A stretch of 64,000 bases of DNA from the NCBI GenBank assembly GCA_965287045.1, contig OZ336872.1:81034001-81098000 (forward strand), read 5' to 3'. The position numbers were made by a program, and so were the translations under genes. The number at the start of each line of letters is the position of its first letter. Position 1 is the first letter of the stretch. The notes under the pieces were generated by a model. The model did not search any database. It saw only the letters and a list, made by a program, of their open reading frames with translations, and was not told where the DNA came from. Origin of the DNA: Carcharhinus amblyrhynchos (taxonomy: Eukaryota). Positions 3,945 to 43,242 of the stretch are shown here, one piece after another.

Positions 3945-4230
3945 TAAAGTCGTTTAAAGTTTATTTGTTAGGCACAAGCAAGGCTTAAATTAACACTGCA
4001 ATGAAGTTACTGTGAAATTCCCCTAGTTGTCACATTCTTCTGTTTGGGTCAATGCACCTAACCAGCATGTCTTTCAGACTGTGGCAAGAAACTAGAGCAT
4101 CTGAAGGAAACCCACACAGACGTGGGAAGACTGTGCAAACTCCACACAGACAGTGACCTAAGATGGGAATCGAATCTGGGTCCTTGGCACTGTGAGGCAG
4201 CAGTACTAACCACTGCGCCACCATGCCGTC
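3945..4230 (-). mobile_element. V-SINE
   Basis: Reverse complement of head, V-domain and tail. Confidence 0.85.
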
Positions 4231-4474
4231 CATATGTTTATATATATATATATATATACAGAACAGTGAACAAATCACAGCTTTGATTTTAATACTGCTG
4301 TGTGGGCTATACATGAACAGGAACTTCTGACATTTTGTTTACTATCTTTGTGGTGTCACAACATCATAATAATATGACTCTTCCAATATGCAGATGTCTA
4401 TTCATTGTACTTTAATTAAATGTTGCCTATAATTTTACTCATTAACAAAGTCATATAGCCACATTATACCGCAA

Positions 4475-5160
4475 GGGCAGCATGGTGGTTGGCATAGCTG
4501 CCTCACAGTGCCAGGGAACCAGATTTGATTCCAACGTTTGGTGACTCTGTATGCTCTCCCCGTGTCTGCACGGGTTTCCTCCGGGTGCTCCAGTTTCCTC
4601 CCAGAGTCCAAAGATGTGGAGGTGAGGTGGACTGGCCATGCTAAATTGCCCATTATTGTCAGGAGGATTAGTAAGGTAATTCATTGTCTTACTGGTATAC
4701 TGGAATGGCACGGTGGCACTGCTGCCTCACAGCACCAGGAACCCGGGTTCGATTCCTGGCTTGGGTCACTGTCTGTGTGGAGTGCTTCCCATGTCAGCCT
4801 GGGTTTTCTCCGGGTGCTCTGGTTTCATCCTTTGAAAGACAAAGAACAAAGAAAATTACAGGACAGGAACAGGCACTTCGATCCCCCAAGCCTGCACTGA
4901 CCATAATGCCCGACTTAACTAAAATCCTCTACCCTTCTGGGGACCATATAAAGAACTAAGAAAATTAAATTAGATGTGCTGGTTAGGTGCATTGACCCGA
5001 ACAGGTGCCAGAGTGTGGCGACTAGGGGAATTGCACAGTAACTCCATTACAGTGTTAAGGTAAGCCTTGCTTGTGACTAATAAACAAAGTTTTTAAATTT
5101 ATAAGGCCAGTATGGGCTCAATGGGCTGAATGGCCTTCTTCTATACTGTAAGGTTTTTAT
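4475..5160 (+). mobile_element. HE1-type SINE containing a nested V-SINE (~4705-5095), which itself contains a CR1 tail fragment (~4838-4960)
   Basis: Two heads and V-domains; CR1-type tail resumes at ~5105. Confidence 0.75.
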
Positions 5161-8099: not shown

Positions 8100-8520
8100 C
8101 AATCCATGGAGCTACTGGGTATCTATGGAATAACTGGGTACCCATGGAATGGGTTGTGTATCTATGGAGCTGTTGTGTATCCATGGAGATGCTGTATACC
8201 TGTTGATCTGTTGTATATCTGTAGCACTATTGTGTATCCATGGAGCTGTTAAATACACATGGAGCTGTTGTGCACTGATGGAGCTGTTGTGTATCCTTAG
8301 AGCCGGTGTGGACCTGTGGAGCTATTGTATACCAGTGGAGATGTTGCATGCCCATGGAGCTGTAATGTAACTGTGTAGCTTTTGGGTGCCCATGGAAATG
8401 TTGCACACCTATGAAGCTGTTGTGTACTCATAGAACAGTTGTGTTCCTGTGTAGCTGTTGTATACCTGTTGAGCTATTGTATATTTGTTGAGCTGTATCT
8501 CTGTGGGGCTGTTAACTATG
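8100..8520. repeat. Degenerate 19-bp minisatellite (ccatggagctgttgtgtat)n, ~20 copies
   Basis: Directly visible periodicity. Confidence 0.8.
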
Positions 8521-9694: not shown

Positions 9695-11045
9695 CCAGCA
9701 GGACTCAACACAGTTGACCACAACTTCTGGCAGTGCTTTCTGGCATTTGTACATGTGCAGTCAAACATGGAAATCCAGACGTTTCTCTCGTGATTTTCTG
9801 CACTTCTGCAGGGTGCTCTGGAGAAATCCATGCCTGCAGTCACTAATGTTTAGAAATCACCAATTGATGAAAACATCTCCTTTTATGCTGTTGCATCACA
9901 GTTAAAAAAGTTCCATCTTGTCGGATGATGTATGACTGGAATTTTGATGATGTGCCAAGACACAACTATTGTTGAACAGCCCTTCTGGCTCTGGAAAACA
10001 TATTTTATACCTGTCAAAGTTTCTCAATAAGTTAAAAATTCCATTGTACTGTTAATAGCATAAAAAGTGTGTTTTGAAAGTTTGCTACTATTTCAGCTTC
10101 TGACAAAGAACAAAGTACAGCAGATGAACAGGCCCTTCAGCTTTCCAAGCCTGTAATGATCATGATGCCCTAACTAAATTAAAAAAAAATCTGCCCTTTC
10201 TCAGTCCTCTATTTCCTCCCTAATCATGTACCCATTCAAATGCCTCTTAAATGTTGCTAATGTGTCTGCTTCCACCACCTCCTCTGGCCGCAAGTTCCAG
10301 GCACCCACAACGCTCTGCATGAAAAACTTTGTCCGCACAGCTCCCTTAAACTTTTCCCCTCTCACCTTGAACCTGTCCCTCTTTGTAATTGATACTTCAA
10401 CCCTAGGAAAAAGCGTCTGACTATCCACCCAGTCTAGGCTTCTCATAATTTTATAGACCTCTACTAGGTATCCCCTTAGCCTCCAACTTTCCAGTAAAAA
10501 CAATCCTAGTTTATTCAACCTCTCCTCATAATCAACACCCTTGAGATCAGGCAACATCCTGGTGAATTCTTTGCACTCTCTCCAAAGCTTCCACATCCTT
10601 CTGGTAGTATAGTGACCAGAACTGCATGCAATACTCCAAATACAACCTAACCAAGGTTTTATATAGCTGTAACATGATTTCCCAACTTTTGTACTCAATG
10701 CCCTGGATGACGAAGGCAAGCATACCCATAAGTCCTCTTAATCATCTGGGCCACCTATGTTGCCACTTTTAGGGAACAGTGGACGCCCAGATTCCTCAAT
10801 ATGTCAATGTTCCTAAGGGTTCTGCCTTTTACAGTATATTCACATCGACATTTGATCCTTCAAAATGCATCACCTCACATTTGTCTGAATTAAACTCCAC
10901 CTGCCATTTCTGTGCCCAATTTTCCAATCTATCTATATCCTGTTGTATCCTCTGGCAATCCCTGGCACCATCAGCAACTCCACTAATCTTCATGTCATCC
11001 GCAAACTTACTAATCAGATCATTTTTGTCCAGATCATTTATATAT

Positions 11046-12933
11046 GAGGTCCCAGAAGACTGGAGGGTAGCAAATGTGGTACCGCTGTTTAAAAAGGGTA
11101 GTAGGGATAACCCTGGAAATTATAGACCGGTGAGTTTGACATCGGTGGTAGGGAAATTAATGGAAAAAATACTTAGGGTAGGATGTATGAGCATTTGGAG
11201 CGTTGCGATCTGATTAGGGATACGCAACATGGCTTTGTTAGAGGGAGGTCTTGCCTTACGAATCTGGTGGAATTCTTTAAGGAGGTGACAAAAATGGTTG
11301 ACGATGGGAGAGCCGTTGATGTCATCTATATGGATTTCAGTAAGGCGTTTGACAAAGTTCCTCATGGTAGGCTGGTAGAAAAGGTTAAGGCGCATGGGAT
11401 ACGAGGTCAGGTAGCTAGGTGGATTGAAAACTGGCTGGGTAATAGGAGACAGAGGGTAGTTGTGGAGGGGACCTTTTCCGGCTGGAGGCCAGTGACCAGT
11501 GGTGTGCCGCAGGGCTCAGTACTGGGACCTCTCCTCTTTGTAGTATACATAAATGACTTGGAAGAGAGCGTAGGTGGTGTGATCAGCAAGTTTGCGGATG
11601 ACACCAAGATGGCAGGGTTGGCGGGTACTGAAGTGGAATGTCAGGTGATACAACAGGATATAGATAGGTTGGTGCATTGGGCAGATAGGTGGCAGATGGA
11701 ATTTAATCCTGACAAATGCGTGGTGATGCATTTTGGAAGGAATAATGCAGAGAGGAGCTATGTGATAAAAGGTAGACCAATTAGGAGTATAGACATACAG
11801 AGGGACCTGGGAGTGCAGGTTCACAAATCCATGAAGGTTGCGACACGAGTGGAGAAGGTTGTTAGGAAGGCTTATGGAATGCTAGCCTTTATAAGTAGGG
11901 GTATAGAGTATAAAAGCTGCCGTCTAATGCTTCAGTTGTATAGAACGTTGGTTAGACCGCATTTGGAGTACTGCGTCCAGTTCTGGTCACCTTACTACCG
12001 GAAGGACGTGGAGGCTCTGGAGAGGGTTCAGAGGAGGTTTACCAAAATGTTGCCTGGCATGGAGGGGCTGGGGTACAAGGAAAGGTTGGAGAAACTGGGA
12101 CTTTTCTCCTTGGAAAGACGGAGGTTGAGGGGGGACATGATAGAGGTATATAAGATACTGAAGGGAATAGATAGAGTCAATAGTGAGAGACTGCTCCCTA
12201 GACTGGGTACAAATACAAGAGGTCATGATTTAAGGGTGAGGGGGGAGAGGTATAATTTGGATGTGAGAGGAAGGTTCTTTACGCAGAGAGTTGTGGGGGT
12301 ATGGAACGCGCTACCGAGGAGGGTGGTGGAGGCAGGAACGTTGGACTCGTTTAAGGTTCAGTTAGACAGACACGAGTGAAACGAGGATGGAGGGTTATAG
12401 TAGGGGCTATTAAATAAGGTCAGAACCTCGGGAGACACCGGAAAAGCAGACTTGTAAGATTAACGTTTTTGTCTTTTTATTCCGCAGGTGGAGGTCCACC
12501 TCGTTGTCAAACGAGGGGCATGTACACGGTGGGTCGTGCGTGGGCTGCTCTTGGAGGTTCCGGGAGTGGCCTCGTACTTCGTGTCGGTGTGTGTGCTTGA
12601 TCCTGGACCGGTAGACGGGCACTGCAACAGCTCAGTGACTAGCACTGCTAGCTGTGCAGATACATGGATTTGGGCCTGTGTCTGTGGGAGTTTGTGCATT
12701 CTCCCTGTGATTGCATGGGTTTCCTCCGGGCGCTCCGGTTTCCTCCCACACCCCAAAGATGTGCACTTAGGCTGATTGGTTTACTAAATTGACACTATTC
12801 TCCCCTGAATCTGACTAAGTTAGGGGTTCCATTCGTAGACACGCAGGGTAGAGTAGGTGTAGGGTGATGCGGCGGCGCGGGCTCGTTGGGCCGAAGGGCC
12901 TGTTTCCCGTGCTGGGTTGTTCTTTGTTCTTTG
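11046..12933 (+). mobile_element. Young 5'-truncated CR1 (HER1-like) LINE, copy A, with extended 3' UTR
   Basis: RT ORF 11183-12379 (DFSKAFDKV, GVPQGSVLGPLLF, FADD); tail hairpin plus ttgttctttgttctttg; TSD tatatat at 11039-11045 and 12934-12940. Confidence 0.95.
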
Positions 12934-13811
12934 TATATATATTACAAGCAACAGAGGGCCACGCACTGATCCTTGCGGAACACCACTGGCTACAGATATC
13001 CATTCTGAAAAATACCCTTCCACTGATGCTGTCTGTCTTCTGTAACCAAGCCAGTTCTGTATCCATCTAGCTAGCCCAGCCCGAATCCCATGTGATTTTA
13101 GTTTTTGTATCAGTCTGTCATATGAGACCTTGTCAAATGCCTCACCAAACTACATATAATGCCATATAAACTACATCCACAACCCTTCCCTCATCAATTA
13201 TCTTTGTCACCTCTGCAAAAAACTCAATCAAGTTGGTGAGACATGATCTTTCCTTTACAAAACCATGCTCCCTGTCGCTAACTAGTCCATTTTCTTCCAA
13301 ATGTGTATGTGCCCTGTCCCTCAATATCTTCTCCAAAAGCTTTCCCACCATTGACTTCAGGACCACTGGTCTATAATTTCCTGGTTTATAATTATTCCTG
13401 CTTCCTTTCTTAAAGGATACATCTGGACACATCTAACAAATTGTTCAGCATCTGAGCTCCTGGCTGTAAGAGAATCCCAGTCAATATGAATGAAGTTAAA
13501 GTCACCCACCACAAATACCCTGCTTTTTACAGGTCTTTTCAGTATCTGACTATGCAACTGCACTTCTGTCTCCTGTGGGCTGTTGCGAGGTCCATAGTAC
13601 ACTCCCAACATTTTGATTTCACCCTTCCTATTCCTGAGCTTCACCCACAATGCCTCACTATAAGATCCCTCCAATGCATCTTCTCTCAACACAGCTATGA
13701 TCTGCTCCCTGATCAGTAATGTAACTCCCTCACCCCTTTTGTCTCCCCTTCTGTCCCATCTAAAACAATGATATCCCAGAATGTTAAGCTGCCAGTCCTG
13801 CCCCCTCCTGT

Positions 13812-14100
13812 TTTTAACTTTATTTATTAGTGTCACAAGTAAGCTTACATTAACACTGCAATGAAGTTACTGTGAAAATCCCCTCGTGGCCACACTCAGG
13901 CGCCTGTTCGTGTACACTGAGGCATGACCAATGCACCTAACCAGCACGTTTTTCGGACTGTGAGAGGAGACCTGAGCACCCGGAGGAAACCCACGCAGAT
14001 ACAGGGAAAACATCAGACTCCACATAGACAGTGGCCCAAGCTAGGAATTGAATCTGGGTCACTGGCTCTGTGAGACAGCAGTGCTAATCACTGTGCTGCT
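13812..14100 (-). mobile_element. V-SINE
   Basis: Reverse complement of head, V-domain and tail. Confidence 0.85.
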
Positions 14101-14605
14101 TTAACCATGTCTTTGTAATTGTAATAATATCATAATTCCATACAGTAATCCATGTGTATATCTCAATTTTAATTTGCACTCTGAAACTTACTTAAAAAAT
14201 TAAGGATAATTAGTGCAAATTATTTCCTGGTTTACTGTCTGTGAGAATTTTATAATGTGATTTGTTGCTTACCTTACTGTTAGTATTACTTTTGTGCTCC
14301 TCTGAAGAACCCCTTGACTTGGTGCCAGATTCAAATTACTATCGAGAAATGCTAAGTTATCACACAAAGATTGCCTAAGTGAACTTATCGGGAACAGGCA
14401 AGAAAGTAGAATTAAGTTCACAGCCATGATCTTATTGAATGACAGAACAGGATTGAGGGGCTAACTAGCTTTGTGCTTCTCCTATTTCCTCTGTGGTTAT
14501 TAAATAATGCCATTGCTGCCTTCAAAATCTGGGCCATAACTTTCTCTTTGGCTCAATGTCAAATTTTATAGGATTATGTTCCAGTGAAGCACCTACTAGC
14601 ACTTA

Positions 14606-17245
14606 GCCAGTCAAAGACACTATATACTGGGGGAGGGCTAGATACAACCGGATTAGGCAGGATCTTAAAGATACGGACTGGGGTAAGCTGTTTGATGGCA
14701 GGTCGACGCTGGGTATGTGGGAGTCTCTCAAGGGAAAACTAAAATCTTTGCAGGAAAGACATGTGCCGGTCAAGAGGAAGGATGGGAAGGGTAGGATTAG
14801 AGAGCCGTGGGTAACTAGGGATATTGAGGACCTGGTCAGGAGGAAGAGGGAGGCGTACATTAGATCTAGGCATTTGAGGACAGAGATAGCGTTAGAAGAA
14901 TACAGAGAATGTAGGAGAGAACTTAAAAGGGGCATCAGAAAGGCAAAAAGGGGCCACGAAATGGCTTTGGCGGGTAGGATTAAGGAAAATCCTAAGGCAT
15001 TTTACTCCTATGTTAGAAACAAAAGGATGGTTAGAGGGAAGATTGGTCCTCTCAGGGACAGAGGAGGGGAACTATGCTTGGAGCCTGGGGGAATGGGGGA
15101 GATCTTGAATGAATACTTTGCGTCGGTATTCACGCAGGAGAGGGGCCTGATGTCTGGTGCTGTGCTTGAGGAGTTTGAGGATCCATTGAGGGAAATAGTC
15201 ATCACGAGGGAAGAGGTGTTGGGACTGTTAGACAGCATAAAGACGGATAAATCTCCGGGGCCTGATGGCATCTATCCCAGGCTGCTAAGGGAGGTGAGGG
15301 ATGAAATTGCTGGGCCTCTGACGCAAATCTTTGTCTCTTCTTTGGACACAGGTGAGGTCCCAGAGGATTGGCGGATTGCAAATGTAGTACCGTTGTTTAA
15401 AAAGGGTCAGAGGGATAACCCAGGGAATTATAGGCCGGTGAGCTTGACTTCAGTTATAGGCAAGCTAATGGAGAGGATCCTCAAGGATAGGGTGTATGAA
15501 CATCTGGAGCGCTGCAATCTGATCAGGGATACGCAGCATGGCTTCGTTACAGGGAGGTTGTGCCTTACGAATCTAGTGGAATTTTTTGAAGAGGTGACAA
15601 AAACGGTTGACAAAGGACAAGCCGTTGATGTCGTCTATATGGATTTCAGTAAGGCGTTTGACAAGGTCCCTCATGGTAGGCTGATAGAAAAGGTGAAGGC
15701 TCATGGGATACAAGGCCAGGTATGTAGATGGGTGGAGAACTGGCTTGGGAGGAGGAGACAGCGGGTAGTAGTGGAAGGCTCCTTTTCCAATTGGAGGTCT
15801 GTCACCAGTGGTGTGCCGCAGGGCTCGGTACTAGGACCTCTTCTATTTGTGGTATATATTAATGACTTGGAAGAGGGGGTAGGTGGTGTGATCAGCAAAT
15901 TTGCTGATGACACTAAGATGGTTGGATTGGCGGGTACTGAGGAGCAGTGCCTGGCAATGCAACAGGACATAGACAGGCTGGTAGATTGGGCAGATAGATG
16001 GCAAATGGAATTTAATCCGGAGAAATGCGAGGTGATGCACTTTGGCCGGAATAATGTGGAGGGGAGTTATACGATAAAAGGTAGAACTATCCGGAGTATA
16101 GATACGCAGAGAGACCTGGGGGTGCAAGTGCACAAGTCCCTGAAGGTGTCGGTGCAGGTGCAGAATGTGATGAGGAAAGCGTATGGTATGTTAGCCTTCA
16201 TAGGAAGGGGTATAGAATATAAGAGTAGGAGTCTGATGTTGCAGTTGTATAGAACGTTGGTTAGGCCTCACTTGGAGTACTGCGTCCAGTTCTGGTCGCC
16301 GTACTACCGGAAGGATGTAGAGATCCTGGAGAGAGTGCAGAGGAGATTTACCAGGATGCTGCCTGGTATGGAAGGGCTGTCTTACGAGGAAAGATTGAAC
16401 GAACTTGGGCTGTTTTCCCTTGAGAGACGTCGGCTGAGGGGGGATCTAATAGAGGTTTATAAGATTATGAAGGGGATAGATAGAGTTAATGGTGGTAAGC
16501 TTTTTCCGCTATTAGAAATGGATAGAACAAGGGGTCACGGGCTTAGGGTGAGGGGGGCTAGGTATAAGACAAATATTAGAGGGCAGTTTTTCACGCAAAG
16601 GGTAGTGGGGGTGTGGAATGCACTGCCGAGTAAGGTGGTGGAAGCAGGCACGCTAGGGTTGTTTAAGAGTAACTTAGACAGCCACATGAGCGGGCTACAT
16701 ATAGGGGGATATAGCAGGCCTTACTAAACATTGTAGGCTTGGGATTACGTTTTTGCCTCAGGGATGTTACAGTCTTTGCCTGTTTAATAATGAATTTTTT
16801 GTCTCCACAGGCATTTAAGTCCAGCAAGGGGCATGCATGCGGCAGGTTGTAGTGGGCTGCTCTTGGACGTTGCTTCGGGAGTTGCCTATTGCTTCATGTC
16901 GTTAGTGTGCTTAAACTGGACCATCTCGAGGGCAACATGACAGCTCAGAGACTATCTCTGTTGCTGTGCGGACACATGGATTTGGGCCTGTGTCTGTGGG
17001 AGTTTGCACGTTCTCCCCATGGTTGCGTGGGTTTCCTCCGGGTGCTCCGGTTTCCTCCCACATCCCAAAGATGTGCTTTTAGGCTGATTGATTGGGTAAC
17101 AAATTGTCCCTATATTGGACCTCCCTGTTCCTCGCACATTAGGCGTAGACTAAAATCATGAATAGGTCACTGAGACAGTGGGATGGCGGCGCGGGCTCGT
17201 TGGGCCGAAGGGCCTGTTTCCCGTGCTGTGTTGTTCTTTGTTCTT
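14606..17245 (+). mobile_element. Young 5'-truncated CR1 LINE, copy B, uninterrupted ~700-codon ORF2 fragment and extended 3' UTR
   Basis: ORF 14715-16727 is open upstream to ~14607; RT motifs; same terminal hairpin and tail as copy A. Confidence 0.95.
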
Positions 17246-17281
17246 ATATACATACAAGTTGTTGTTGCATTGCAGCTACTT

Positions 17282-17570
17282 GGGGTGGCACGGTGCATAG
17301 TAGTTAGCATTTCTGCCTCATCGCACCAGGGACCTGGGTTTGATTCCCGGCTTGAGTCACTTCCTGTGTGGAGTCTGCATGCTCTCTCTGGGGCTGCATG
17401 GGTTTCCTTTGGGTGCTCTGGTTTCATCCCACAGTCTGAAAAATGTGCTGGTTAGTGCATTGATTCTCCCTCAGTGTACCTAGACAGGTGCTGGAGTGCG
17501 GCGAATCCAGGATTTTCATAGGAACTTCATTGCAGTGTTAATGTAAGCCTCCTTGCGACACTGATAAAAA
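17282..17570 (+). mobile_element. V-SINE
   Basis: Head, V-domain, tail. Confidence 0.85.
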
Positions 17571-19134
17571 AATTCAGCAAGGTTCCTTCAACAGCACCTG
17601 CCAAACCTGTGAGCTCTCTCACACAGATGGTCAAGGACAGTAGGCACGTTGAACACCACCATCACTGCTGTTTCAATGTCGTTGGACAACTTACCTAACA
17701 GCACAGTAGGAGTAACTTCACTACATGGACTGCACCATGAAGCAAGAAGGTATAGCTCACCACAACCTTCTCATGGGTAATTAAGAATGGGCAATAAATG
17801 ATGGCCTTAAGAGTGAAGATGGCCTTGAGTGAGTTTTAGAAAAAAAGGGACTGCTGTTCTAAATGTTGTATCAGACCCAGGAGTAATTAATAGTGTCAGT
17901 GAGTGTCAACAGTGAAAAAGTATTCAATTCTACAGCATTTGATCATCAAAGCTATTCTCTTCCTCTGCGCAAAGTAAAGGCAATAATTAAGTAATAGAAT
18001 CCATCAGTCCATGAAACAAACTATCAAAATCCTATCTGGGTTTTGACTGTGCTTAAGTATCTATGCAAAACTCAACAGATATCTGTGTCTGTGGTTCAAT
18101 CATCCATCATCACTTAGTTTCATACAAATTTAATTGCGCAAATCTGAATTAAATGCAAATCATCAGTTGTGCATGAATGCAAGCAATACGTTCTGCAAAG
18201 TAAATTTCAATTAAGAGTATAATTCATACATATCTACCATGATTTTGCAACAAACAGCTTGATTTCTTTGTTCTGGTTTAGTCTATTAAATACAAATAAT
18301 GGAATCAATTAACATGAAAATTTATCTCCACGTTCATTTTACTGAGTGAAAATCAAGCAGAAGAAAAATTTAGCATGTGACAAAATCCTCTAAATTCTTT
18401 AACGAAATGGACACTGGGAAGTCCTAGTCCTAGCTGCATCTAGACTTCCAAAAGATACTTGACAGAAGTTTCACCTACCAAGGCTATTAGTTAAACTTCT
18501 AAGATTCAGGATTAACCCTAAGATGGATAGTAAATAGGCTGAAGGATAGAAAGCAATTAATTGCATTGAGTTGGGGCAATGGAGTGCACCATGACTGGAT
18601 AGTGCTGTTCATATAAACACTTCGGACAGTGTCTTGTGGAGGCTATTCTCACTTCTTTTGTGGAAGGCCTACCCAACCATGAGCCAATCTTGGAGTCAAC
18701 AGATAAGTGACAAGCCTTTCCCTGAGATCAGGGTCCCAGGAGAGGCAGTTCTCACCTGCCGAGAGCTGCTGGCCAATCTGGGGTTGACAGCAGCACCACT
18801 GGCGTGGTGGTGGCTGCTACAAGAATAACATGGACGAGTAGCCAAGTAATAGTTGGAAGGGTTTTGATAGGTGGGGGTTGCAATGTTGGGGGTGGGGGGG
18901 GGTGGGGTGTAGGGGAGCTGACAGCTCTCAGAGCCAATGGGATGAGACCCTTAAATAGTCATCAACTGGCCACTTTAGGGTCCTAACAGGCATTAGGGTG
19001 GGAAGGCTGACCACGAGCCTTTCAGCCCCAGATATAATCAGGATGGAGCCAGGAAGGGATGCTCATCTGCCTGCCACTCTTCTTGCCAGACTGAAATGGC
19101 AAGCAACGGAAAGGTCCCTGACCTTGCCATTTTA

Positions 19135-20847: not shown

Positions 20848-21162
20848 GTAGAATCACTGCACTGCAGAAGGAAGCCATTCAACCCATTGAGTTTGCACCG
20901 ATCATTATCACATCCAGGTCTTATCCCCATAACCCCATATATTTATCCTGTTAATCCACTGACAGTGGAATCAGTTGTGGCCAATCAACCTAACCTGCAC
21001 ATCTTTGGACTGTGGGAAGAAACCAGAACACCCGGAGGAAGCCCACACAGACTCAGGAGAATGTGCAAACTTCACACACGGACAGCGACCTGAGGCCAGA
21101 ATTGAACCCGGGTCCCTGGCACTGTGAGGCAGCAGTGCCAACCACTGTGCCACTGTGCAACC
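20848..21162 (-). mobile_element. HE1-type V-SINE (CR1 tail)
   Basis: Head, V-domain and gggttgaatggcttccttctg tail on the minus strand. Confidence 0.82.
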
Positions 21163-24100
21163 CCAAATAATGAGATATGCCTTAGTCCTTGCAAGGTCAT
21201 ACACCATTTTCACCTAGTTCAGTTTTTTTTATTCTTTTGTGAGATGTGGGCTTCGTTGGCTAGACCCTTATTTTTGTCCATCCCTAATTGCCCTTGAGAA
21301 GATCATGGTGAGCCGTTTGGTGTAGATACATCCACAGTGCTGGATTGCATGGAGTTCCAGGATTTCGACCCAGCAACAGTGAAGGAATGGCAATATTTTT
21401 CCACGTCAAAAAGTGAGTGACTTGGAGGGTTTGGAGACTTGAGAGCACAGAGGGAAATTTGCTGATGATGGTCACCCCATGTGCCTGCTGCCTTTGTCTT
21501 TCTATGTGATAGAGATCACAGGATTGGAAGGTGCCGTCGAAAGACTTGATTTGATTTATTATTGCCACATTATTTGGGATGCTGTGAAAAGTATTATTTC
21601 TTGTGTGCTATACAGACAAAACCATTCATGAAATACATAGGGGAGAAGAAAAGGATGGGGTGCTTAGTATAGTGTTGCAGTTACAGATAGGATGTAGAGA
21701 AAGATCAGCTTAATATATGATAGGACAATTCAAAAATCTGATGGCAGCAGGAGCTTTGGTGAGCTATGGAATAAAGTCAGCAAATGTGTGTCAGGCATGT
21801 TTATAATTCTGTCACTAGCTACCTGCAAGCTTTCTGTCTCTCCATCTCTGACTAAGACGGCCACAGATATACCACTTACCTCCATCAGACCAGTTAGCCA
21901 GACTATTTGTGGTGGCCAATCTTTGGTATTGTCCTCTCCAATGTTAATGGGCTCTTGCTTTAACAATGGATGAAAGTGAGACTGGTGAGTGAGTTCAGAA
22001 ATGCATCTGAAAGATGCGGTAAGGATTACTATGAGAAAACTGAATTACATTGTATAAGAAGTAGGAGCAGGAGGATGTTATTCAGCCCCTCAAGTCTGCT
22101 CTGCCACTCAGTAAGATAATAGCTGCAATCAACTGCATTTTTCTGACCTCTCCTCATAATGATTGAGTGAGTGCCAATGGTGGATGGATACATGGGGAGG
22201 TAATGAAGTGCACAAGGCTGGGTGCTGCTGAAAGATGAATGGGTAAGAGTGGACAAGAAGAATGATGTGAGGTAAGATGCTGAACACATTAGAGTGAAAG
22301 GGGCAGGTGGCTTAAACCACAGGATTGACGTGAATCAGCAAGCACACTCATTTTTCCAGAATAGGTTAGGTCATTAATCCCAGACACTCTGATCCTGCCG
22401 CGCATCCCCTCAGTTCACTAGTCGCATTTTCTTGGTGAGACCCAACCACGATGCAGCGTCTGATAGCCAATCATGCAGTCCATGTAGTAGGATCTCAGGT
22501 TGGTCAGCTCGCTGCCAACTGGCATTACGGCTGTGGATTACAGCATGCAGGGTGTAAAAGTTCTGCATAAACCTTGGGAGCTTCAGTGACCTTGTGTAAA
22601 AGTTGCAACAAATTGCAAAATGTAAATATTTCCAACTTCAGCCTGAAGGGAGCCAGATGTATTAAGTTGATGGTCGTAATCATCAACACAGCCACTAGCC
22701 AACATGGTCCATATTATTCTCTATGGCTGCAGTTGTGGCAAAGTTCGATGAGGACATTCTTACTGAAGCACAGAAGTGTCAACATCTGAGGTTCAAGTAT
22801 GAGATTTGTTCCTTGAAAACCCTAGGTGACTATGGCATCCTTTTGAGAGCCATCTTCACCAGCTCCCTTTTCCACCAGCTTGACCTATTCTGCATGACTT
22901 ATGTTGATTCTACAATTCATGTTTTATTCCAGGAGGATTGCCAGTTGCAGCTTTAAATCTGAGTTTCCCAAACCCATGTTCAGAGACAACAGGCTTGTAC
23001 AGAATTGAAGTCAGGTAAAACTTGGGCACCATATGCAACAGCACTCCTGCAGACTTCTGCGACTTGGAATAATGATAGAATGCACCAAACACAAGCAGAA
23101 CCATAGCAACAACCAGACAAAATCAACCAGTACTAACCCTGTACATGCTTTAGGCTATGTTGGAGGGCCCTTCTTCCTGATATTGAAAACTCAGCTGGAG
23201 TTTTGAGATCTAAAAAGATAGATCAACAGCCAAATCAATGTGACAGTCTAATTGACATCATGATCTGTTTGCTTTGCAGATTTACAGCGGACAATCATTA
23301 CCTACGCTAATGCCCTCACCAGTGTGGTGTCCAGCTTATTTCAACCCAGATGTGTGTACATATGCCACAGACACCACCTTTGAGCCTCACGAAACAGGTG
23401 TCAATGAGCCCAATTTCCAGTCCTCAGACTGTTCTCTAATGGTAGGCATTTAGACAGTGGATGCAAACTGCTCACACTGTACACTCGTGTTTAAATCGTT
23501 TGAACCGCTTCATTACATGTCATCCCTGAAATCACTGACTAAATGTGAATAGTTTTTATGTGGTGCATAATGGATGGTGAAAAGTCTTATAAAATCCTTC
23601 TCCCAGTCTTGTGATTCACAACTTTCTGCTGATTACTGAGGAAAAAAACATTAATTGCTTCTGCTTACATTAAAATGGCCTTAAACAGCACAAAAGTAAC
23701 TGTTTTTTTTCACTGTCATGAGATCTCATTAAACAAGCTTATTGCATTAATGGCAGAAGGAACTTAAAGTACCAATATAATTCCAGTGTGCTGGCAGAGA
23801 TCGAGTATATTTAGATAGTCTTGTTAGATTGTGTATTTCCACAGATCATTTGTCAAAAGGCAATAAGGCACTGTTGTACAGGAAACAGCCAACATGGTGG
23901 ATTCTTTCTGAATACAGCACTTTGAGCTGCAGTGTTTGTACGCTCTTCAATTGTCCGACAGTGTCGAGGAATTGAAGATTATTCTCCTGAAACCTGTTAT
24001 AAACAAACAGGGAAAACAATTGAAAAAGTGATGAATTCTCCAGTTCTTTGAACATTTCATTTTATTAGTAACTAAAGTACGGGGGAACGGGAGAAAGGCT

Positions 24101-25119
24101 GTTATCCTGGGCTGGGTAGTCAGAGAGTAGATCGTGTGTGATTCAACCCCTCAAGGAATATATCCAAACAGAATTGGTAACCCTAAGCTAAGACTTCACT
24201 GAAGTCAACCCTCTCAAATAGTTGTGAACCAGGGCTGTCCAAACTGGGGGTCATGAGAGGAGACTTAGGGGTCATGGGTTACACAGTTGCAATGGCTGCT
24301 GGGAAGCTCCGACTGAATATTCACAGCTGTGCAACCCTTTAAATCCTCATTTTATTAAACAGTGGTATGGCTTACAAGATCCAAATTTGAGGCCTTAATT
24401 GCTGTTCCATAAAACCCACTGCACTACAGCTGCTCTTCCCTAAAGGGGTTGCCCCTCCAGGATCATGCCTGGGTGCTGGGTCTTTTTTTTACACAGCAAA
24501 GAAAGCTGTCCTTGTCCCTTGCAGTCTGCACTTTCATTTCGGCAGCTCCCGTGCGGCTGGTTGCGCTGTCGAGCACTGAGTCTGGAGACTTGCATTGGCC
24601 CATAAGACCACGGCCCCCCCAGCATCAGGAACCCGCTCACTGTCCCTGACTGATGGCTACCTCACTTCCTGACTTTAAGCCAGTATATCAAAATTGCAGT
24701 GCGTGTGCCCTAAAAAGTTTGTTGCAGGGTCAAGAACCAGAATTATTCCCTATTTCCAGTTCCCCACCCATGATTGAAAATTCAGTCCTTCATGTTGAAT
24801 CCTTCTAATAAAGCCAAGTAGTTCTTATCAAAGTCACACATCCAACGTGACTATAAAAAAACTAACTATTTCTCACCACATCATTTTCCTCCAATGCCTC
24901 TCCACCCTCATCCAGTTATTGGGTGGGACTGCAACTCACCAGGTTCCATTCTTAACTGTCTAACTGTGAGAATTATCAACAATAGGTTCTCTTTTGAGTC
25001 CTGTAGTTGCCTTGGAGTCTTTCAAGGACATATCCCTGGTCCCTTCCTATTTCTGAGCAGCATGCTGCTCCTTGCTAAATCATCTGCAAAGACAACAGCA
25101 GTTTCCACATATAACATGG

Positions 25120-25440
25120 ATGGTACAGTGGTATAATGGTTAGCATTACTGCTTCACAGCATCAGGGACATGGGTTTGATTCCAGTCTTGTATGGAGTTT
25201 GCATGTTCTCCGTGTGTGTGGATTTTCTCTCACAGTCCAAAGATTTGCAAGTTAGGTGGATTGGCTGTACTAAATTGCCCTTTAGTGTTCCAGGGTGTGT
25301 GTAGGTTATGGGGATTAGTGGGGTAAATGCATGGGGTTAAGGGAATGGGACGGAGGGTGGGCCTGGGTAAGAGGCTGTATCGAAGAGTTGTTGGGCCAAA
25401 TGGCCTGCTTTCACCTGTAGGGATTCAATGATTCTATAAT
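25120..25440 (+). mobile_element. HE1-type V-SINE (CR1 tail)
   Basis: Head, V-domain, gggccaaatggcctgc tail. Confidence 0.78.
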
Positions 25441-25799
25441 TCTAACCTAATCATACTTCTTGAGTTCTCTAATAAAGATTGCTTCTTCACATTAAGATTC
25501 CATTTGCCTCATTCTTGACTGCACTTAACCTATCTTAACCTGTTGTATAGCCTGTTTGTACTTATTGCCTGATCAATAGCAAAGAGCTGCTGTTTTTTCA
25601 CCAAAGTTCAGGTGAGGTGGTAGCCCCAAGTCTACCTCAGCCAGAATGTAGATTGAACGCTGTGCTGTTGGCATTAATTAGATACACGTGCTAGCTGTCT
25701 AGCTGATTGTGCTAACTGGCCCCCATACTCCCTGGTGATATCCGCTTTACCGCACCACCTCCTGTCTTGTCTCTTCCAAAGTCTTTGAATTGTCACACA

Positions 25800-29419: not shown

Positions 29420-29675
29420 TGGGCTGCATGGTAGCACAGTGGTTAGCACTGCTCCTTTGCAGCTCCAGGGACCTGGGTTTGATTCCTGGCTTGGTGACTG
29501 TCTGTGTGGAGTTTGCACATTCTCCTCATGTCTGTGTGGGTTTCCTCTGGTTTCCTCCCACAATCCAAAGATGTGCGGGTTAGGTTGATTGGCCATGCTA
29601 AATCGACCGTAGATGCATAAGTTTGAGGATTAGTGGGTAAAATATGTACAGATATGGGGTTTGGACTTGGGTGAG
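29420..29675 (+). mobile_element. HE1-type V-SINE truncating the hAT fossil
   Basis: Head and V-domain. Confidence 0.8.
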
Positions 29676-31199
29676 ATTGACAATATTGTTAGCGTTGTTC
29701 TTGTGTTCTATATTCATGGTTTCTTAATATTAAGTATAAGAAAGATTTTGTTTAGAACAAACCCAGGATCTTAAATCTGAAACAAAGGCAACTATGTATA
29801 CGGAAGGTTTCTTGATCAGTATGCCAAGGAACCAAGGAGGGAGCAGGTTATTTTAAATCTAATATTGTGTAATGAAACAGGTTTAATTAATAATCTTGTT
29901 GTAAAAGAGCTTCTGGGCAAGAGGGATCATAATATGATAAAATTTAATATTGAGTATAAGAAAAATTTTGTTTAGAACAAATCCAGGATCTTAAATCTGA
30001 ACAAAGGGAACTAGGTGTAAGGGGTAAGTTGATTAAAGTGGACTGGAAACAACTTAAAAAGGTAATGATAGACAAATCTTGGTAAGTAGTTGAATTAATT
30101 CCTAATTCAAGCATATATCTATTCCTTTCAGAAAAATGATTTAACCATGACTGTGGTCATGCTAAATTCTCCCTCAGTATGCCTGAACAGGCGCTGTAGT
30201 GTGGCAACGAGAGGATTTTCACAATAACTTCACTGCAGTGTTAATATAAGCCAACTTGTGATACTAATAAATAAACTTTATTACTGCAAATTTGGTTTAA
30301 AGTAATGAATTATCTTGATTTTCAAATAATTAATTTTGATTTGTGATTAGACTTGTACTTTAGACAGCGTTCCCAGCCATTTAATAACTAAATCTGTAAT
30401 TAAGGATCATTTGTCACCCTTGCTACGCCTGGGGTGCAACTCCACAGGAAAATGGAGTTGAGACCACGATCAGATCAGCCATGATTTTATCAAATGGTGA
30501 AGCAGGCTTGAAGGGCTGAATGGCCTACTCATACTCTGATTAATATTCTACCTGACACTATTACTAGGGTGCTTGGGAAAACTCCCATTAATGCTTTCCG
30601 TCCCTGGTTTTCTTGGTTATATCTGAACTGATTTAATATCTTGGTTTTTTGCAGTCAGATTCTATCTCTCTATATCAGTATGATACAACATAAATTCTCT
30701 GTTTGAAAATACAACGACCCTGAAATAATTAATTCCTCATCTTAGTCACCCAGCAACCATGCCTCCAGAATGGGTCTTCAGTGAAACATATTTATTTCAA
30801 TCTGCATTAATATATTTTGTTGTGAACGATACACACATTTGGGTACAGTGCACTAGCTTTGTTACCCTCACTGTCGCACTGGACTTATTTTTTTTAAACC
30901 CAAATTGTTACTTTCTGCCCTGCAGCTCTTTGTCTTTTGTTTCTTAAACGCTTTTGAATCAATCCTTTCCTGAACCCTATCAGGCACTCATTGACCATTG
31001 CTGTGCCTTGAGCTGGTTCTGGCTGACGCTGAACACCACGCTCCTGCAGCACCGCCCAACCCCGGCAGGGGGAGCCACACAGAGCAAGTGCCCAGACAGG
31101 AGAGGTCCTTCGCCAGGAGAAGCCCCTTCAGCAGCCTGAAATTCAAATGCTTTTCAAACTTGATTTTTATTTTGAGTTACAACGCATAATAAATTGATG

Positions 31200-31750
31200 A
31201 AAAAGGCTGTGAACGACCTCGTGCTTGGTTGAATCGGAGAGACGGTTCGTATTTATTACGCGCTCAGGCCGGCCAGCTGCCCTGGGGTCCTGGCGGGGTT
31301 GCTGTGGAGATCTAAGATGGCGGCGCTCTGGCTGGCCGGCTCCGGTGGGTACAAATGGGGCCGGGAGCGCCTGCGTTGGGCTCGGGTCAGGCTCCGGTCT
31401 TTGGGGGAGGGGGGGGCAGGTTTTAGCCGCTAACCCTTCACCGCAGGAGCGGAGGTTGCAGGGATTGGGGCTGCGCTGGCGGTCCATTCCGCTGTCATTT
31501 CCTGAGTGTGAACAGTCAGTAACGGAGGGGGGGAAGAAGGGGGCGGGAGCTGTGATTGACAGCGCGGCTGCCCAATCAGGGAGCGGCTGGCCTGTGCCCT
31601 GCAGATCCTGTCCAATTAGCTGGAGGCGGGGGCGGGTCCCGCGCGGGGACATTCCAGGTTCGGTCGCGCGGCGGATCCTGATTGGAGTAGAGAAGAGGAA
31701 AACTCAGGCTGCGAATGTGAGCCCGGGACTGGAGCCCGCAGCATAAGCAC
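31200..31750. promoter_or_regulatory. CpG island / UGGT1 promoter region with YY1 motif, GC boxes and CCAAT boxes
   Basis: Only CpG-dense non-repeat stretch in the window; AAGATGGCGGC at 31314-31324; GGGGCGGG at ~31540 and ~31629; CCAAT at ~31572, ~31612 and (minus) 31681-31685. Confidence 0.85.
31317..31344 (+). CDS. UGGT1: UGGT1 coding exon 1 (MAALWLAGS, phase 1)
   Basis: aagATGGCGGCG (good Kozak, overlaps YY1 motif) in CpG island; donor G|GTGGGT at 31345; phase 1 joins exon 2 in frame. Confidence 0.8.
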
Positions 31751-31751
31751 C

Positions 31752-31897
31752 GTGCAACCAGTGAGCCACTGCAGGGCAACCGGTGTGCAACCAGTGAGCC
31801 ACGGCAGGGCAACCAGTGAGCCACGGCAGGGCAACCAGTGTGCAACCAGTGAGCCACTGCAGGGCAACCAGTGTGCAACCATTGAGCCACTGCAGGG
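31752..31897. repeat. Compound minisatellite (22-bp gcaaccagtgagccactgcagg plus 11-bp gcaaccagtgt units)
   Basis: Directly visible tandem units, decaying further downstream. Confidence 0.85.
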
Positions 31898-38175: not shown

Positions 38176-38314
38176 CTAAGAATGACAACACTGGGATTCT
38201 TGCAACAGTTGCTCTGGTGTGTCTCTCCTTCTCGATTGTGAATGCAGACTCAAAAGCAGTGACAACAACGCTCACCACCAAGTGGCCATCTACACCATTG
38301 TTATTGGAAGCAAG
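38176..38314 (+). CDS. UGGT1: UGGT1 exon 2 (signal peptide, ...VNADSKAVTTTLTTKWPSTPLLLEAS)
   Basis: cttacag acceptor, gtaatc donor; matches the UGGT1 N-terminus ADSKAITTSLTTKWFSTPLLLEAS. Confidence 0.97.
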
Positions 38315-42353: not shown

Positions 42354-43242
42354 CATAAGAACCTAAGAAATAGGAGCAGAAGTAGGCCATCTAGCCCTTC
42401 GAGCCTGCCCCCCCATTCAATAAGATCATGGCTGATCTGTCGTGTCTCAGTTCCACATTCCCACCCTCTCCCCATAACCCTTAATCCCCTCTCTTATCAA
42501 AAACCCATCAACCCGCGTCTTAAAAATATTTAGCGAGGCAGCCTCCACCACTTCAACGGGCAGAGAATTCCAGAGATTCACCACCCTTTGAGTGAAGAAG
42601 TTCCTCCTCAACTCCGTTCTAAACCGCTCCCCCTTTATCTTGAGGCTGTGCCCCCTAGTCCTACTGTCCTTTCTGAGCGGGAAGAGTGTCTCCACCTCTA
42701 TCCTATCCATCCCATTCATCATCTTATATGTCTCAATGAGATCTCCCCTCATTCTTCTAAACTCTAACGAGTACAATCCTAGTTTATTCAGCCTCTCCTC
42801 GTAGCCCAACCCCCTCAACTCCGGCATCAGCCTAGTAAACCTCCTCTGCACTCCCTCCAAGGCCAAAATATCCTTGCGTAAGTATGGCGCCCAAAACTGC
42901 ACACAGTACTCCAGCTGCGGCCTCACCAATGCCCTATACAGCTGCAGCAAGACCTCCCTACTTTTATATTCAATCCCCCTCGCTATGAAGGCCAGTATCC
43001 CATTCGCCTTCCTGACCACCTGCTGCACCTGCAGGCTGGGTTTTTGCGACTCATGCACAAGGACCCCGAGGTCCCTCTGCACCGTCGCCTGCTGCAGTTT
43101 TTCGCCACGTAAGTAATAATCCTTCCTACCATTATTCCTACCAAAGTGGACCATCTCGCACTTGCCAACATTAAATTCCATTTGCCATTTCCTGGCCCAT
43201 TCACCCAGCCTATCTAGATCCTTCTGTAGACTCTCCACACCC
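42354..43242 (-). mobile_element. Young 5'-truncated CR1 LINE inside a Penelope element
   Basis: Intact ORF2 C-terminus (42447-~43240); tail tttcttaggttcttatg; 4-bp TSD atta at 42350-42353 and 43243-43246. Confidence 0.92.

Follow-up and report, generated by a model that had tools for sequence, protein, structure and literature searches.

A promoterless V-SINE core within the 3′ UTR of two diverged CR1 retrotransposon copies of Carcharhinus amblyrhynchos

The Locus and Its Surroundings

The DNA under study, hereafter "the window", is a stretch of 64,000 nucleotides (64 kb) from Carcharhinus amblyrhynchos (GenBank assembly GCA_965287045.1, contig OZ336872.1, positions 81,034,001 to 81,098,000 of the forward strand). 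It is repeat-rich vertebrate DNA and contains two 5′-truncated CR1 insertions, copy A (11046–12933) and copy B (14628–17244), each with a long 3′ untranslated region (UTR) in which parts of a V-SINE are embedded (Table 1).

On the plus strand of the window, host-gene exons with UGGT-type thioredoxin-like domains are found at 38283, 39251, 40990, 46730, and 61460. The first exon of this UGGT-type gene probably lies near 31317 within a CpG island (31200–31350), which would place A and B upstream of the gene. The minus strand shows a weak RGS-domain match (E 0.003) together with an acceptor-like site at 23849–24061 and a second exon-like stretch at 21880–22028; possibly, these belong to a minus-strand gene with an intron that could hold A and B in antisense. 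Further repeats comprise minisatellites at 8134–8513 and 31738–31897, with periods of 19 nt and 11/22 nt, respectively, and a 96-nt inverted repeat (42181–42276/43462–43557; 94%) around the CR1 copy at 42354–43232, which possibly represents the ends of another element that received the CR1.

Table 1. Positions of the features of copies A and B within the window.
Copy	Feature	Position	Strand	Remarks
A	5′ target-site duplication TATATAT	11039..11045	+	sits within older minus-strand CR1
A	5′-truncated CR1 ORF2, reverse transcriptase and C-terminus	11046..12413	+	RVT_1 E 3e-26
A	Spacer 1, 101 nt	12414..12514	+	alignment to spacer of B at shuffle level
A	3′ splice-site-like motif: TTAAC, pyrimidine tract, CAG/G (G at 12488)	12461..12488	+	putative
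A	Hairpin H1 ("100-nt block"), 35-pair G:U-rich stem	12515..12598	+	predicted; stable on sense strand only
A	Hairpin H2: 5′ half of SINE tRNA head, degenerate A box	12627..12655	+	predicted
A	B-box-deleted junction, helix H3	12656..12686	+	predicted; within 33-nt A/B-identical run
A	V-domain	12677..12791	+	profile of free SINEs
A	Spacer 2, 79 nt	12792..12870	+	diverged from that of B, length equal to segment of B
A	CR1 terminal hairpin and TTTGTTC-type repeats	12871..12933	+	
A	3′ target-site duplication	12934..12940	+	
B	5′ target-site duplication TATATAC	14621..14627	+	
B	5′-truncated CR1 ORF2, open until stop 16725–16727	14628..16727	+	RVT_1 E 2e-35
B	3′ splice-site-like motif: TTAAT, pyrimidine tract, CAG/G (G at 16811)	16786..16811	+	putative
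B	Hairpin H1, 33 pairs, plus 6-pair basal stem	16828..16912	+	predicted
B	Hairpin H2 (head remnant)	16940..16967	+	predicted; U-A to A-U compensatory change vs. A
B	V-domain	16989..17106	+	profile of free SINEs
B	CR1 terminal hairpin and repeats	17186..17244	+	59/60 identical to A
B	3′ target-site duplication	17245..17251	+	

Copies A and B as CR1 Insertions

Both copies display the hallmarks of CR1-type insertion, namely 5′ truncation and a flanking 7-bp target-site duplication (TSD), as in target-primed reverse transcription, and a 3′ end consisting of a terminal hairpin and short tandem repeats instead of poly(A). Copy A interrupts an older CR1 in minus orientation. Since the TSDs of A and B enclose ORF2 as well as the UTR, it follows that ORF2, the V-domain and the tail have moved as one unit. 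Both targets read TATATA(T/C), a pattern present only 18 times on the plus strand of the window, and the family may have a preference for (TA)n target sites. A full-length element of the A/B type was not seen in the 64-kb window, both copies being 5′-truncated.

The ORF2 of copy A is not intact, with frame changes near 11177 and near 12370, and that of copy B is a remnant with 706 open codons. The range given for A in the first-pass annotation of this DNA starts at 12380, behind a premature stop that is due to a frameshift, and has to be revised; the stop equivalent to that of B is found at 12411–12413, hence, the UTR of A comprises 12414–12933. Over 396 codons, the two ORF2s share 82% protein identity, at a dS of 0.87, a dN of 0.11 and a dN/dS of 0.13, and four-fold sites are identical in 71 out of 122 cases. 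They are sisters (SH-aLRT 100) in a quick tree of 25 rows, from which the A+B grouping alone is used, several window rows being short or long-branched. On sequence grounds, A and B stand for two long-separated CR1 families.

The best named matches of the ORF2 reverse transcriptase are vertebrate CR1-like gene models, those of elasmobranchs being highest in identity; the CR1 assignment is based on these matches. Among the matches listed, the nearest named relatives are from Stegostoma (70%), Hypanus (66%), Mustelus (64%), and Chiloscyllium (63%); the best matches from named sharks and rays cover 54–70% identity, with none listed above 70%, compared to 82% between A and B. Endonuclease Pfam domains are present in the relatives P0003, P0006, and P0007. 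Several CR1 ORF2 sequences (P0003, P0081, P0148, and L001–L007) have been deposited under bacterial names and presumably represent vertebrate contamination of the assemblies concerned.

Conserved and Randomised Segments of the 3′ UTR

The UTRs of A and B are each about 520 nt long and share one layout, in which conserved and randomised segments take turns. The first-pass annotation had described this layout with its coordinates, including a conserved block of about 100 nt and clear divergence of the two copies in ORF2 and spacers, and all of this is borne out by the alignments. Between A and B, 75/92 aligned sites match in the block (corrected distance 0.21), 50/56 in the SINE-head remnant (0.12), 101/115 in the V-domain (0.13), and 59/60 in the terminal hairpin plus tail (0.02), every one of these four alignment scores exceeding all 300 shuffles. 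The spacers, by comparison, score inside the shuffle range (spacer 1, −69 versus −78 ± 12; spacer 2, −45 versus −59 ± 11). Compared to the four-fold sites of ORF2, conservation is higher in the block, the head, the V-domain and the tail alike (Fisher P 2e-4, 2e-5, 2e-7, and 4e-10, respectively). With its divergence of 0.13, close to the dN of 0.11 and far under the dS of 0.87, the V-domain is approximately as conserved as the nonsynonymous sites of ORF2; it occupies the same position in both copies and is more conserved than the spacers. The conserved unit exceeds the V-domain, as it takes in the hairpin H1 ("100-nt block"), which is not SINE-derived.

Such a pattern might also have come about neutrally, if the H1-head-V block were a mere passenger that template switches had recently carried from one of the two lineages to the other, V being a preferred site of recombination, and, thus, were younger than the split of the ORF2s. 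The near contiguity of the module (about 280 nt at 80–89%) favours an exchange of this kind, and module exchange mediated by highly conserved domains (HCDs) has been put forward as a hypothesis (PMC5804259). However, at least two crossovers and a separate homogenisation of the tail would be needed, and the lengths of both spacers have been held within 2 nt, spacer 1 measuring 101/100 nt in A/B and the stretch between the end of V and the hairpin 116/118 nt. In addition, a 17-nt linker within the module (12610–12626), in which 12/17 columns differ (P 0.001), adjoins a 33-nt run that is identical in A and B (P 0.017); a linker randomised inside the module speaks against one recent transfer. Neutral exchange is, therefore, considered unlikely, and purifying selection on the module is regarded as probable.

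Coding sequence in the UTR was considered as a candidate explanation and rejected. In copy A, 95 codons are open behind the acceptor-like motif, the matching frame of B contains a stop and local shifts, and the matches of the translated UTR are to generic V-SINE only (1/3 candidates; 5 proteins), with none over H1.

The V-Domain and the Remnant of the SINE Head

A profile built from eight free SINEs of the window recovers the V-domain in both UTRs (E 4e-26 for A; E 5e-25 for B), in agreement with the first-pass annotation. Compared by eye to the V_HCD consensus from the supplement of PMC6887750, 75/85 positions agree in B and 72/85 in A. The V highly conserved domain, by which the V-SINE superfamily is recognised, is thus present in A and B. 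Of the tRNA-derived head, only the 5′ half is left. The head-only profile, applied to the whole window, returns A at E 0.05–0.11 and does not find B; with a position-restricted PWM, 0/2000 shuffles are as good as A and 13/2000 as good as B. These values point to a weak but real head remnant at the expected position, as had been proposed along with a degenerate A box. An A-box pattern finds neither LINE copy, and no tRNA was found by ARAGORN. The B box, previously stated to be missing, is indeed lacking: its profile matches nine free SINE copies and neither LINE in the 64-kb window, and the alignment shows a deletion of approximately 12–18 nt at its site in A/B.

Two defining features of a V-SINE are, hence, absent. 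Neither copy has a tRNA-derived head in which both Pol III boxes, A and B, are intact, and neither is a short, non-coding, independently mobile unit with boundaries of its own, since the TSDs of A and B also enclose ORF2. For this reason, A and B are CR1 LINEs that hold a captured V-SINE core devoid of its promoter, and not V-SINEs.

The V-domains of the two LINE copies are 86% identical to each other and 67–80% identical to the free copies. In an unrooted tree, they are monophyletic versus the eight free V-SINEs (UFBoot 100), and they have 11 states in common, 7 of which are absent from all eight free SINEs; both observations fit a single capture followed by inheritance. That the LINE and its V-SINE core are one mobile unit with vertical inheritance is very likely. 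The corresponding claim of the first-pass annotation, namely that a LINE lineage has fixed and kept a V-SINE core, can be upheld on the basis of TSDs that enclose ORF2 and UTR, sister ORF2s, monophyletic V-domains, and a V divergence of 0.13 against a dS of 0.87.

Two other origins of the arrangement have to be weighed. The first one assumes independent SINE insertions into two resident LINEs, local gene conversion, or an assembly artefact. V-SINEs are dense in the window, with nine strong matches besides A and B in 64 kb, and the two copies are merely 1.7 kb apart, as would suit such events. Yet each element has its own TSD, V lies at an equal position in both, the B-box deletion and the 11 states are shared, and conserved segments alternate with randomised ones, which makes this origin highly improbable.

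The second one reverses the direction of transfer, with V being an old LINE 3′ UTR element that was borrowed by SINEs and the present lineage being a source of V-SINEs, as had also been suggested in the first-pass annotation. LINE-derived SINE bodies are known for 5′ parts of RTE and Vingi (PMC5786205), and the LINE V-domains are placed outside the eight free SINEs in the unrooted tree. Against this stand the decayed tRNA head without a B box ahead of V, which is a SINE relic; the 7 of 11 shared states that occur in no free SINE; the absence of V from the other CR1s of the window and from seven outgroup loci; and the reported occurrence of V-SINEs in molluscs and in cnidarians (PMC4824008), far older than this CR1 clade. 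The suggestion is, consequently, dropped as very improbable. Judged by the decayed head in front of V and by the reach of V-SINEs to cnidarians, the direction of transfer is from SINE to LINE.

The CR1 Tail and the Origin of the Module

Seven CR1 copies of the window extend to the C-terminal end of ORF2 (A, B, 10225, 1919, 34254, 42474, and 55609), and a V match downstream of ORF2 is found only in A and B; the absence of a V-domain from the other window CR1s, as noted earlier, is thereby confirmed for 5/7 copies. As these five have spread without the module, it is not required for CR1 mobility. Neither V nor H1 was found at seven distant CR1 loci obtained by a protein scan. An exact 25-nt scan of genome contigs for module copies gave 0 matches and the plasmid collection gave none; all three results carry little weight, the sets compared being free of shark genomes.

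The near-identical terminal hairpin of the two copies was recognised correctly from the outset, but the (ttgttct)n tail ascribed to it has to be corrected to approximately two TTTGTTC-type units. The ORF2 nearest to those of A/B is that of the short-tailed copy C, at 10100, and the tail of B scores 37–43 against three short-tailed CR1 ends versus 13–29 against three free V-SINE 3′ ends. Tail capture from an HE1-type SINE was considered as the origin of the arrangement and is weakened by this closeness to short-tailed CR1s, by a spacer 2 that matches 0/3 free-SINE spacers, and by the lack of an old-tail remnant after the stop (6 comparisons, all P > 0.08); this origin would still be possible if a V-SINE with such a tail exists, and the free copy at 29421 does close with a repeat of this kind. 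H1 and the acceptor-like motif, absent from free SINEs, may be captured host DNA.

Several further insertions are found in the window. Two free V-SINEs (25118–25445, plus strand; 20850–21164, minus strand) have CR1-type tails and an HE1-like layout. A third one (29421–29710, plus strand) has the V-domain closest to A/B (77–80%) and ends in a TTGTTCT-like repeat without a hairpin. A second V-SINE family (55–350, 3955–4231, 13816–14100, and 17282–17575) has a non-CR1 tail with a AATAAATAAACTTTA-like end motif. Finally, a tail-only CR1 insertion with TTTGTTC repeats is present at 4840–4930 (minus strand), apparently within a V-SINE starting at 4706.

Predicted RNA Structure of the Module

H1 is predicted to form one long hairpin of like topology in A and B, with folding z-scores of −3.1/−3.2 (A/B) for the sense and 0.0/+2.4 for the antisense strand. 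In the predicted helix H3, the head remnant, at the site of the lost B box, is paired to the first part of V; the two differences between the copies in this helix leave the pairing intact. The central part of V is predicted to fold into a stem-loop of 36 nt with an internal loop (A, 12715–12750; B, 17027–17062), in which 2/36 sites differ and for which energies of −12.1 and −15.9 kcal/mol are calculated in the two copies. Its internal loop is a symmetric UUUCCU/UUUCCU loop, which we take to be loosely similar to the pyrimidine-rich loops of triple-helix stability elements. The fold of the whole V-domain is no more stable than that of shuffles (z 0.1 and −0.7). The central stem-loop appears to resemble the Vhc hairpin of PMC4758252, a stem-loop that likewise has an internal loop.

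For the module as a whole, the number of broken predicted pairs is lower than in a base-matched null, with P 0.002–0.07 over 12/12 settings and P < 0.05 in 10 of them; for H1 alone, P is 0.002–0.10, varying with the alignment. This tendency of the changes to preserve predicted pairs stands against the neutral exchange discussed above. On the other hand, paired and unpaired sites of A differ at like rates (32/178 and 19/97), which is in favour of such an exchange. In the B-to-A direction, the proportion of broken pairs among those changed does not reach significance (P 0.05–0.13), and a comparable proportion (5/13) is seen in one of four control stretches taken from ORF2. A result with zero broken pairs was set aside because the structure had been fitted to both sequences. 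Overall, the structural support for the module is modest.

Rfam gives no match at gathering level in the whole window, H1 included, and one chance match, within ORF2, when E up to 5 is allowed over 12380–17600. The H1 profile matches A and B only within the window, and translated H1 occurs in none of the 238 proteins compared.

A Putative 3′ Splice Site Ahead of H1

In addition to the H1 hairpin structure and the TSDs, the present analysis extends the first-pass annotation by a 3′ splice-site-like motif, which stands 27 nt (A) and 17 nt (B) ahead of H1 and has a weaker twin upstream in copy B, at 16762. A strict acceptor pattern is found at 7 among 966 YAG/G sites in 128 kb (both strands), and A and B account for 2/7; this pattern was chosen after the two sites had been seen, and they share ancestry. 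In the supplement of PMC13343379, several of the catshark CR1 consensus 5′ ends (ScyCan_CR1 rows) show donor-like GTAAG/GTGAG motifs, some of which are followed by a pyrimidine tract and AG right before an ATG (21 rows, by eye).

From these motifs, a different role of the module may be conceived, with the module as the terminal exon of a short RNA that arises by splicing from a donor in the LINE 5′ UTR or in a host gene. The product would be either a Pol II-driven non-autonomous RNA (H1, V, and tail) or a Drosha-type substrate that tunes the activity of the family. A pre-miRNA, as a Drosha substrate, has an imperfect stem of about 35 bp with a terminal loop, and H1, with 35 and 33 pairs, is of pre-miRNA-like length. 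Besides H1, the two strict acceptor patterns and the donor-like motifs of the catshark CR1s agree with this role. It is countered by the post hoc choice of the acceptor pattern and the common ancestry of the two sites, by the absence of a spliced retrocopy from the window, where the H1 profile recovers A/B alone, by the lack of an Rfam family for H1 and of a translated counterpart among the 238 proteins compared, and by would-be miRNA arms that differ between A and B, so that H1 corresponds neither to a known miRNA family nor to one with a conserved mature arm. Furthermore, the 5′ ends of A and B, where donors would lie, are missing. Taken together, a spliced short RNA is quite unlikely as the role of the module.

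Proposed History and Function

The preferred reading, to which we assign a probability of roughly 55%, is that a V-SINE was incorporated into the 3′ UTR of a CR1 lineage, which retains it as an RNA module acting in cis. The ancestor of this lineage would have been a short-tailed elasmobranch CR1, like the copy at 10100, in which about 400 nt were added behind the ORF2 stop and ahead of the element's own terminal hairpin, comprising the splice-acceptor-like tract, the long hairpin H1 and the V-SINE (tRNA head and V-domain). This gain may go back either to a SINE that inserted into an active master copy, or to a template switch in the course of reverse transcription. The B box has been lost; upon this loss, the SINE part is no longer a Pol III unit and moves only in the Pol II transcript of the LINE. 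The lineage subsequently split into the A and B families, which, as seen in two copies, both retained H1, H2, H3, V, and the tail, and the spacers drifted.

Most likely, the module would act in cis through its RNA fold, at a site upstream of the hairpin that ORF2p recognises, and would allow more of the LINE RNA to survive, to be exported from the nucleus, or to be loaded into a productive RNP. A benefit of the module to retrotransposition via RNA stability, export or RNP loading is possible, at somewhat less than even odds; the argument that an upstream module helps is drawn from conservation, and function is read from two copies. It is plausible that the V-domain aids retrotransposition in cis, as had been supposed at first. 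A more far-reaching proposal, tentative and, on balance, doubtful, considers V as a polymerase-independent cis-acting RNA enhancer which CR1 has taken from its own parasite, with the Pol III promoter removed, and which is set in a multi-hairpin module behind a splice acceptor, perhaps also releasing a spliced, Pol II-driven SINE-like RNA.

Highly conserved domains of SINEs have been maintained over hundreds of millions of years. If true, the reading of V as a cis-acting enhancer would provide the first highly conserved SINE domain under selection in a LINE, and the very long conservation of V would be explained by a benefit to the element and not to the host. A CR1 that holds V at approximately the nonsynonymous rate without a SINE promoter would, if this applies genome-wide, constitute a counter-example. 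LINEs of the A/B type also make the function of V testable in cis, with their short-tailed CR1 sisters as natural controls.

Comparison with Known Systems

The ends of BovB may include pieces of SINEs or of CR1, a point that our literature search did not confirm. The parts of the A/B 3′ UTR are known. In the literature searched (titles and abstract openings), no published description of a V-domain in a LINE was found, and the arrangement of A/B was not found in print, including the passages compared from PMC5804259, PMC5786205, PMC3747384, and PMC11481361. In 2016, highly conserved SINE domains were stated not to have been found in LINEs so far (PMC5804259). A Repbase-wide comparison of LINEs and SINEs revealed SINE bodies with only RTE and Vingi 5′ parts; it left out 3′-terminal similarities and is older than most shark genomes (PMC5786205). 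From the elephant shark, CORE and Deu SINEs have been described (PMC5499810), and shark CR1 consensuses were built in 2026 (PMC13343379); the A/B family may be contained, unnoticed, in the latter library.

The HE1 V-SINE/HER1 LINE pair of sharks and rays (PMC3747384, table) shares with A/B the order of a tRNA-derived head, a V-domain and a CR1-type terminal hairpin, a layout that is represented in the window by the free SINEs at 25118 and 21164. In A/B, by contrast, the SINE parts are located downstream of ORF2 inside a TSD-bounded LINE, lack the B box, and are preceded by an extra hairpin and an acceptor-like tract; moreover, the A/B tail is nearer to short-tailed CR1s than to the HE1-type SINEs of the window. 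With canonical vertebrate CR1 of the elasmobranch clade (PMC13343379), A and B have in common the RVT_1 ORF2, 5′ truncation, the terminal hairpin, and a short tandem repeat, whereas the canonical UTR is roughly 70–100 nt long versus about 520 nt, with a SINE-derived module, in A/B.

The nearest precedent is MER6/MER6A (PMC6887750), a MITE with an Ac1-like, headless V-SINE, i.e., likewise a promoter-less V-SINE that was captured and spread by another mobile element. MER6 is a non-autonomous DNA transposon, whereas the carrier in A/B encodes its own reverse transcriptase and moves via RNA, and no selection among MER6 copies was seen by the authors, unlike the conservation of the A/B module across diverged families.

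With respect to function, the closest likeness is to the stringent-type LINEs UnaL2, ZfL2-1/2, SART1, and R2 (PMC5135761), which possess a conserved 3′ UTR RNA structure acting in cis and several of which need terminal stem-loops for retrotransposition; by analogy, the A/B module would most likely work alike. The stem-loops of these LINEs are native sequence near the 3′ end, whereas the upstream structures of A/B include a captured SINE core.
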